DNA of 6,385 nucleotides, taken from the IMG/VR virus record IMGVR_UViG_2711768004_000007. One strand, given 5' to 3'. Below, in pieces: positions 2,249 through 3,294 of the stretch (its first letter is position 1; each line of letters starts with the position of its first letter). Under the pieces are notes generated by a model that worked only from the letters and a program-made list of their open reading frames with translations, did no database searches and was not told the origin of the DNA. This DNA is from a virus. Taxonomy: Duplodnaviria > Heunggongvirae > Uroviricota > Caudoviricetes. The translations under genes were made by a program, and so were the position numbers.

Positions 2249-2368
2249 GTCTTTTCCTTTTCCGGTTAACGTGACACACCAATAACTCTTGTCGAAAAAG
2301 CCAGCAAGCTGAAAGACAGGTATTCACCGCCACCAGCGCGTTTACTGTACTGACGCGATTTCAGTCAT

Positions 2369-2390
2369 AAAAAACCCGCTCGGCGGCGGG
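2369..2390 (-). terminator. tR'-like intrinsic terminator about 45 nt downstream of the pR'-like start site
   Basis: Minus-strand RNA CCCGC-(6-nt loop)-GCGGG followed by UUUUUUA; sits about 40-65 nt downstream of the candidate late promoter, matching the short 6S-like RNA arrangement of lambdoid pR'/tR'. Confidence 0.65.
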
Positions 2391-2437
2391 TTGTAGAAAC
2401 TCTTCTAACGTCAGGCATAAAACGCCCATCGTTATAA

Positions 2438-2467
2438 CGAATTTACCACAGATTCCGGAAAAATCAA
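2438..2467 (-). promoter_or_regulatory. pR'-like late promoter: -35 TTGATT, 16-bp spacer, extended -10 TGgTAAATT
   Basis: Minus-strand TTGATT (2467..2462) and TAAATT (2445..2440) preceded by TG; TAAATT is the -10 hexamer of lambda pR'. Lies 6 nt after the Q-like gene stop. Confidence 0.6.
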
Positions 2468-2472
2468 CCTTG

Positions 2473-3294
2473 TTACCTAGTTACCTTTTTTAACTGCCGC
2501 TCAGCCCATGCTTCTTCAATATCAAACCGGGTCACCAGCGCATCATAAAATTTCTTAACTGTTTTTTCCCATGACGCGCGTGTTATCTGGTTTGTCACCT
2601 CGCATATAGCATTAAATGCCTCCGTTGATGGTAGTCTTTCATAGCCACGACCACCACAACGCTGGCAGTCTCTGATAACAGGCATACCACGTTTTACCGA
2701 CTCTTCACGATGAATGGCGACACCACGCCCACGGCAATCCTTACAGGCGGTGGAAACCTCACCCTTTCCGCCACACTCCGGACAGGCAACTTTTACCACC
2801 TCCCTGACTTTTTTCCATTCTTCCCAGTAAGACGGATACACACCTTTCGTACACTTTGCCCATACCGGCGGCTTACCATCCGGATACTGGATCTTGTTTG
2901 TAAAAACCTCGCTTTCAATAAATTTTTTTCCGTGACAGCAGGGGCACTGTTTTTTGCTCGCCGCGCTACGGGCATAATCTTCAAACGCATACGAAGCCAT
3001 AATACGCATCACTGCCGGTTTTATTTCTGCCGGGAGTTTTCTTAACGCCGCCACGCGATCACACCGACTGAGTGCATATTCTGTCAGCAATTCTGTTGCC
3101 CGCTCTCTGTCATTCATACTAATGCCCATTTTCCCAAGGAACGCAGAAACCCCCATCTCAGCCCGATTCTGTGTCATGCCCTGCGCGGCCATCACATCAG
3201 TGATACTCAGCGCATCTTTCGACGTTGAGGCCGATGCATCAGTCAGGCCGGGGGATTTTGGGGAGTAGTATTTCGGTAAATCTTCCAGTTTCAT
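2473..3294 (-). CDS. Putative late-gene antitermination protein Q (273 aa) with four CxxCxGxG zinc-finger-like repeats
   Basis: Positioned directly upstream of the pR'/tR' pair and after rusA, as in lambdoid phages. N-terminal MKLEDLPKYYSPKSPGL... resembles Q-family proteins from memory. Repeats CPCCHGKK, CPECGGKG, CKDCRGRG, CQRCGGRG. Start overlaps the rusA stop (ATGA). Confidence 0.6.
   Translation of the reverse strand: MKLEDLPKYYSPKSPGLTDASASTSKDALSITDVMAAQGMTQNRAEMGVSAFLGKMGISMNDRERATELLTEYALSRCDRVAALRKLPAEIKPAVMRIMASYAFEDYARSAASKKQCPCCHGKKFIESEVFTNKIQYPDGKPPVWAKCTKGVYPSYWEEWKKVREVVKVACPECGGKGEVSTACKDCRGRGVAIHREESVKRGMPVIRDCQRCGGRGYERLPSTEAFNAICEVTNQITRASWEKTVKKFYDALVTRFDIEEAWAERQLKKVTR

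Follow-up and report, generated by a model that had tools for sequence, protein, structure and literature searches.

A long form of the lambda Q antiterminator and its late-promoter region in a lambda-like prophage of Escherichia coli and Shigella

The late-gene switch of phage lambda is the best-understood antitermination switch. Its antiterminator Q, for which several structures are available (PDB 4MO1, 7UBJ-7UBN), belongs to the Q-lambda family PF03589, which is distinct from the Q21 (PF06530) and Q82 (PF06323) families (PMC9388147). In the lambda protein residues 114-152 form a zinc-ribbon arm, residues 110-112 and 117 contact the beta-prime zinc-binding domain of RNA polymerase, and the mutants V6A and G39A are defective in antitermination; at the promoter a -35-like element TTGACT, located one base before the pause element, receives sigma region 4 (PMC9388147). 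We compare here with this system a phage locus encoding a Q protein of 273 amino acids.

The DNA that was analyzed (the window) is a stretch of 6,385 nt in which all genes of interest are located on the minus strand (Table 1). They follow each other in the order DUF968, RusA, Q, 65-aa ORF, methylase and three tRNAs. As in lambda, the Q gene comes after the nin/RusA region, and its ATG overlaps the stop codon of RusA (ATGA). Lambdoid prophages of E. coli match about 5 kb of the window, and in 924 of 5426 complete E. coli genomes at least 80% of the window is covered at one place. The Stx2a-converting phage Stx2_EH1910 has the identical gene order running on into stx2AB and is 92% identical to the window at the DNA level over the matched 1 kb which comprises Q and the promoter; the window differs from this phage in being without stx and in carrying a Shigella allele of Q. 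In a non-Stx E. coli prophage the module is followed by genes for an esterase and a holin. At both of these loci the 65-aa ORF is found as a hypothetical protein at the same position and the methyltransferase is annotated as a DNA methylase. The exact Q protein has an entry under the name "MULTISPECIES: antitermination protein [Shigella]" and occurs in at least 1000 contigs. The assembly of the window itself is flawed, with inverted duplicate ends and an N-run. For an E. coli/Shigella lambda-like prophage the locus is an ordinary late-gene switch which is already annotated; to annotate it is routine, and by homology the cassette would work in the same way as in lambda.

Table 1. Features of the window, listed in the direction of transcription
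Feature	Coordinates	Strand	Basis or remark
DUF968/HNH protein gene	3672..4730	minus	
RusA gene	3291..3671	minus	
Q antiterminator gene (273 aa), long-form member of the lambda Q family	2473..3294	minus	
Q codons 1-44, homologous to the RNA-exit-channel torus segment of lambda Q	3163..3294	minus	aligned to lambda Q 1-44
Q codons 115-180, 66-residue insert relative to lambda Q	2755..2952	minus	gap in the lambda Q alignment
Q codons 182-218, zinc-ribbon arm homologous to lambda Q 116-152	2641..2751	minus	C184, C187, C210, C213
Late promoter pR'	2440..2467	minus	read from the sequence, aligned to lambda pR'
Candidate Q-binding element in the promoter spacer, TTTCCGGAATCTGTGG	2446..2461	minus	analogy with the lambda QBE
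Sigma-dependent pause element AACGATGGG	2425..2433	minus	six bases after TAAATT, as in lambda
Intrinsic terminator tR'	2367..2392	minus	stem 2392..2373; terminator scan and RNA fold
ORF, 65 aa, function unassigned, first after tR'	2051..2248	minus	phrog_331, E 1.4e-37
Second intrinsic terminator	2039..2064	minus	stem 2064..2047 and T-run; overlaps the stop codon of the 65-aa ORF
N6/N4 DNA methyltransferase gene	842..1900	minus	PF01555, E 7.9e-42
Promoter-like site TTGAAG-17-TATTAT	811..839	minus	9/12 matches; directly upstream of the first tRNA
Three tRNA genes: CAT anticodon (Ile in RefSeq), Arg-TCG, Arg-TCT	552..801	minus	ARAGORN, Rfam, RefSeq
Third intrinsic terminator, after the tRNAs	511..537	minus	stem 537..520 and T-run

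The 273-aa reading frame is present where the initial annotation had placed it, and its assignment as a Q antiterminator is borne out by several lines of evidence. The protein matches the PF03589 profile with 179.2 bits (gathering score 26.7, E 1.6e-53) and the phrog_127 family "anti-termination protein Q-like" with E 6e-112; the family matched is thus a Q family. Phage_antitermQ, the Pfam family to which the initial annotation had looked for confirmation, is PF06530, the family of the phage 21 Q protein, and gives no match; the correct family is PF03589. Neither the Q21 nor the Q82 profile (PF06323) matches at E values up to 0.01, and although these two families share the regulatory logic and the genomic position of the window protein (PMC9388147), their folds are unrelated. 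Among proteins of solved structure the best sequence match is the lambda Q chain of 7UBM (E 3.5e-41), and the chains of 7UBM, 4MO1 and 7UBJ match at E 3.5e-41 to 4e-21 over residues 1-113 and 182-273, which align to residues 1-113 and 116-207 of lambda Q, respectively. An AF2 model built on 63 homologues (pLDDT 84.5) has as its best PDB match 7ubn_Q (E 4e-14, TM 0.75 normalised to the target), that is lambda Q in the NusA-engaged form of the loading complex (PMC9388147). The significant PDB matches of the model are eight lambda Q chains only, and no non-Q chain scores below E 0.5.

The two proteins also agree in detail. Both consist of an N-terminal torus segment, a four-helix body, an arm with two CxxCxGxG knuckles and a C-terminal helix. 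The N-terminal segment is well conserved; G39 is kept, and position 6 is Leu and not Val. In the arm C184, C187, C210 and C213 align with C118, C121, C144 and C147 of lambda Q and are invariant in the 63 homologues, and the arm fragment by itself matches PF03589 (E 1.6e-14). Together with the lambda-type pR'/tR' pair next to the gene these findings leave us highly confident that the gene codes for a late-gene antiterminator of the lambda Q family and that its regulatory cassette follows in the DNA immediately downstream.

This cassette begins with a promoter which had already been recognized in the initial annotation from its -10 hexamer TAAATT and the extended TG. Both are in place, and the alignment to lambda pR' as well as a matching pause element now add to that call. 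The -35 hexamer TTGATT (2467..2462; TTGACT in lambda) is followed by a spacer of 16 nt, which has 17 nt and a different sequence in lambda; the TG at 2448-2447 is separated by one base from the -10 hexamer at 2445..2440, which is identical to that of lambda. With four of six consensus positions in each hexamer the promoter is weak. A generic sigma-70 scan does not report it because its score of 8/12 is under the threshold of 9, and therefore the promoter call rests on the lambda alignment. Six bases after the -10 hexamer, as in lambda, the pause element follows, and the resulting 21-nt pattern TAAATT-N6-AACGATGGG corresponds base for base, spacing included, to pR' and the pause element of lambda. 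There is a single copy of this pattern in the window, and 200 shuffled versions contain none. By analogy with lambda, transcription is predicted to start at 2433 and to pause at AACGATGGG.

The same arrangement is found in a wider set of loci. We fetched 60 loci encoding relatives from about 20 enterobacterial genera, 56 of which were usable. At 42 of these 56 the stop codon of a long-form Q is followed by the promoter and, after a gap of 5-7 nt (6 in most), by AACGATGGG or a near variant of it, and 32 of the 42 cassettes have in addition a hairpin with a T-run beginning at +48..+65. The promoter spacer falls into classes. Loci with a Q similar to that of the window, from Escherichia, Klebsiella, Enterobacter, Kluyvera, Erwinia and Rouxiella, keep the block TTTCCsGAAnCTGTG, whereas a more distant group of Q proteins goes along with another class, ACGTGGCGGAATTTGGC. 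That the spacer classes track the Q groups is as expected if the Q-binding element is located in the spacer as in lambda, and we infer by this analogy that it is. The cassette departs from that of lambda in a further respect: the -35-like element just upstream of the pause element is weak (TCGTTA, three of six matches). Given this sequence, loading of Q may be different from that in lambda or less efficient.

The terminator that had been expected about 45 nt past the start site is present as well. When +1 is set to 2433 by analogy with lambda, the stem of tR' covers +42..+61 and its T-run extends to +67, whereas tR' of lambda ends near +194. The RNA fold of tR' has a free energy of -22.7 kcal/mol (z = -2.5). 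The two further terminators proposed in the initial annotation were both recovered on the minus strand by the terminator scan. The terminated leader RNA is predicted to be about 65 nt long. The 6S RNA of lambda has a length of 194 nt. It is, like StxS with 258 nt, a short terminated transcript from a constitutive pR', which is also what is predicted for the window (PMC7547250). An Rfam search with the leader found nothing. We considered the leader as a counterpart of the small RNA StxS and set this aside, as StxS differs in length and accompanies an unrelated clade of Q proteins of 144 aa (PMC7547250).

On the model of the structures solved for its homologue lambda Q (PMC9388147) we propose that the switch operates as follows. 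RNA polymerase would initiate at pR' at about 2433, sigma-70 region 2 would rebind to the -10-like sequence AACGAT and the polymerase would pause about 16 nt downstream. Q would bind to its site in the promoter spacer with the helix-turn-helix of the body and with the zinc-ribbon arm; the tip of the arm would meet the repositioned sigma region 4, and Q would also touch the beta-prime zinc-binding domain. In the presence of NusA residues 1-44 of Q would refold into a torus which narrows the RNA exit channel, such that terminator hairpins could not form. The modified polymerase would then pass tR' (+42..+67) and the terminators at 2064..2039 and 537..511 into the late genes. Without Q transcription would stop at tR' and yield the short leader RNA. 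In this scheme the dependence on NusA is something that we infer, as is any role of the insert described below.

The earlier interest in this locus rested on a mistaken belief about the motifs of lambda Q. [quoted passage not shown] We find three strict motifs, CPECGGKG at 171, CKDCRGRG at 184 and CQRCGGRG at 210, whereas the fourth, CPCCHGKK at 117, is a CxxCxGxK; an array of four strict DnaJ-type repeats is thus not present. Nor is the spacing even, the distances from start to start being 54, 13 and 26 residues, and the motifs occupy residues 117-217 and so reach from the centre of the protein into its C-terminal half. The motifs are not due to chance, since only 0.1% of shuffled versions of the protein have even one strict motif and since each of the eight cysteines is either invariant or conserved to at least 90% among the 63 aligned homologues. 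Lambda Q itself carries two strict copies, CRDCHGTG at 118 and CGRCKGVG at 144, both within its zinc-ribbon arm. CxxCxGxG is therefore native to lambda Q, and the claim that it is foreign to this protein had to be given up.

That the protein might be a DnaJ-type zinc-finger protein with a chaperone- or redox-like role, and not an antiterminator, would be suggested by sub-threshold matches to DnaJ_CXXCXGXG (PF00684), TIGR02349 DnaJ and anti-TRAP, and one database record calls a homologue "chaperone protein DnaJ". However, the match to PF00684 reaches 30.1 bits and stays below the Pfam cut-off of 32.7, so the domain expected by the initial annotation is not called, and lambda Q alone gives the same kind of sub-threshold match (23.1 bits). 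What the DnaJ cysteine-rich domain and anti-TRAP share with the window protein is the CxxCxGxG knuckle, with weak resemblance in sequence and fold. A Pfam search found no J domain, no G/F region and no C-terminal DnaJ domain; moreover, the protein is collinear with lambda Q over its whole length, and both its place in the genome and the pause cassette next to it are as expected of a Q. The pairing of the motifs differs as well. In DnaJ the zinc pairing is nested, with motif 1 pairing with motif 4 and motif 2 with motif 3. Since motifs 3 and 4 of the window protein correspond to the two knuckles of the single zinc ribbon of lambda Q, its pairing must by analogy be sequential, 1 with 2 and 3 with 4. 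The DnaJ-type reading is extremely improbable and effectively refuted, and we continue with the protein as a lambda-family Q.

The window Q does differ from lambda Q in that body and arm are separated by an insert of 66 residues, which contains a second Cys4 site. This insert falls between P114 and G115 of lambda Q and supplies the first two knuckles, i.e., two extra CxxC pairs. In two AF2 models it forms a short strand and then a long beta-hairpin (125-136/159-170), with one knuckle before the hairpin and a second one after it; the tip of the hairpin is modelled with low confidence and is variable in sequence. The base is strongly conserved, comprising the knuckles, whose cysteines C117, C120, C171 and C174 are invariant or at least 90% conserved in the 63 homologues, and a GxGFIExxVF strand. 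According to the models the insert is most likely a second zinc ribbon in which Cys117/120 and Cys171/174 would coordinate a second zinc at the foot of the hairpin.

We also considered an origin of the insert by tandem duplication of the arm. PF03589 is reported in two stretches for the window Q, but likewise for lambda Q, and the insert alone does not match PF03589. A BLASTP comparison of insert and arm gives a match of 29 residues only (E 0.002), and hhalign of the two profiles aligns only a 9-residue knuckle with a probability of 21%. Because of these weak matches and the two stretches in lambda Q the duplication is unsupported.

The long form is common. The best 120 homologues include 108 near-full-length proteins, every one of which has a length of 258-277 aa. 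An exhaustive search of representatives at 50% identity yielded 234 matching clusters; among the best 150 of these there are 33 full-length representatives, 28 with all eight cysteines and 5 with the short, lambda-like form. In the 28 long proteins the segment equivalent to residues 114-183 comprises 30 to 79 residues. Long-form proteins are annotated as Q in, among others, the phages ES18 (gp73), ST104 (gene 23), SfV (Q), mEp460_ev081, Erwinia phiEt88 and Stx2_EH1910 (quuQ); these have the same two-zinc architecture as the window Q at 38-96% identity, and the window protein is no different from them in architecture. The short form is found in lambda, P22, HK97 and HK620. Since most of the representatives are long and the form is annotated in many phages, this architecture is common and already catalogued, and lambda Q is the minority form. 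A literature search for the long-form Q, quuQ and CxxCxGxG in antiterminators returned nothing relevant, no study of the second ribbon and no experiment on the window protein or any other long-form Q.

We read the insert as a zinc-stabilised second arm that would modify the interface with the polymerase or the DNA. The insert emerges between those residues of lambda Q which contact the beta-prime zinc-binding domain, and the geometry of lambda Q at this contact surface may thus not transfer unchanged to a Q that bears the insert. We tentatively suggest, as one possibility, that the conserved second ribbon is functional and makes an extra contact with promoter DNA, with the beta-prime zinc-binding domain or with NusA, which would alter the recognition of the Q site or loading. 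The insert could instead be a tolerated decoration which uses zinc for stability and has no specific partner, so that the protein would work exactly like lambda Q. This would agree with the variable middle of the insert (about residues 137-160), where pLDDT is lowest (70-74), with the variable length of the segment and with the fact that lambda, P22 and HK97 manage without it. On the other hand, the four cysteines and the GxGFIExxVF strand that flanks them show little or no variation, and most of the full-length representatives named above have retained the insert. The insert is located inside a surface by which lambda Q contacts RNA polymerase (PMC9388147), and long-form loci have their own spacer sequence, conserved across the whole 15-bp block. 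We therefore think that mere decoration is rather unlikely.

The modest interest of the locus is comparative and lies in this conserved second Cys4 hairpin, inserted into what in lambda Q is the polymerase-contact surface. If the second arm were functional, the textbook lambda Q would be a reduced form found in a minority of the family, and the structures of its loading complexes would describe most members incompletely, including the Q proteins which control Shiga toxin genes. At least one Stx2a phage has this type of Q in front of stx2AB, and therefore differences in loading efficiency could bear on toxin output.

The initial annotation had further assumed that the methyltransferase and the tRNA genes need Q-mediated read-through. 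On the minus strand our scan found no promoter-like site between tR' and the start of the methyltransferase at 1900; transcripts therefore have no other evident way into the 65-aa ORF and the methyltransferase than read-through of tR' and of the terminator at 2064, and from the sequence the dependence of these two genes on Q is plausible. For the tRNAs the assumption is doubtful, because they have a promoter-like site of their own and because in the Stx2a phage of strain Sakai a primary transcription start was mapped between tR' and stx2AB which appears to drive the tRNAs (PMC7547250). These two observations would also fit an arrangement in which the methyltransferase and the tRNA genes all have promoters of their own and do without Q read-through, the three terminators serving only to insulate one unit from the next. 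We regard this as possible, if somewhat doubtful: besides the lack of a promoter-like site in front of the methyltransferase, all genes are oriented in the same direction as pR', and there is a tight coupling between the production of Stx2 and the induction of the phage (bioRxiv 10.1101/2024.03.06.583675). Furthermore, the terminator that follows the tRNAs is conserved in Stx2_EH1910, where it is located just in front of stx2A and on the path of a transcript from pR' to stx2AB, which fits Q-dependent expression of whatever follows.

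Beyond the tRNA cluster and the terminator that follows it, the window carries close downstream a match to the STnc100 sRNA family, which scores 123.6 bits against an Rfam gathering score of 47. This match ends at a terminator-like hairpin (315..297), and a perfect TTGACA hexamer is found at 489..484. The Stx2a phage Stx2_EH1910, which has the same order of genes up to the tRNAs, differs at this place, as there stx2AB comes immediately after the tRNA terminator whereas in the window this position is taken by the STnc100 region. Upstream of the tRNA genes there is a promoter-like site, and transcription initiated from it would start at most a few bases away from the first tRNA's 5′ end. 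The two annotations of this tRNA gene name different amino acids (see the table); it probably encodes a lysidine-modified Ile2 tRNA comparable to ileZ of the Stx phages.

Features of the window considered in this part
Feature	Position	Strand	Remarks
STnc100 sRNA family (RF02076)	286-475	(-)	full-length Rfam match
First tRNA gene	726-801	(-)	Met (CAT) according to ARAGORN; tRNA-Ile according to RefSeq (same gene)
Promoter-like TTGAAG-17-TATTAT	811-839	(-)	directly 3′ of the methyltransferase stop codon
65-aa ORF	2051-2248	(-)	phrog_331 (unknown function); between tR′, the terminator after the late promoter, and the second terminator
N run	5335-5415		breaks up the stretch that precedes the DUF968 gene; gene content unreadable there

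The two ends of the window (positions 1-107 and 6279-6385) form an inverted repeat of 107 nt with 100% identity, and the best matches to E. coli genomes start at position 107 in most cases and at 294-295 in the remainder. This terminal repeat looks like an assembly artefact, namely a hairpin or a chimeric contig end, and not like biology.

An inverted repeat of a different kind is present about 70 nt past the Q stop codon in most of the non-Escherichia loci (among L006-L039) that encode the long form of the antiterminator, i.e., with the predicted second zinc ribbon inserted. This repeat has the form AAATAGCTCAC...GTGAGCTATTT. It overlaps the -35 element of the late promoter and is maintained across these loci while the sequences of its arms vary from locus to locus. 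It could serve as a terminator of the Q transcript or as an operator. In the window, where the intergenic gap is just 13 nt, no repeat of this type is present.

The 65-aa ORF holds a position roughly equivalent to that of lambda orf-64, and its product gives a faint winged-helix (TrmB) match with an E value of 0.0026.
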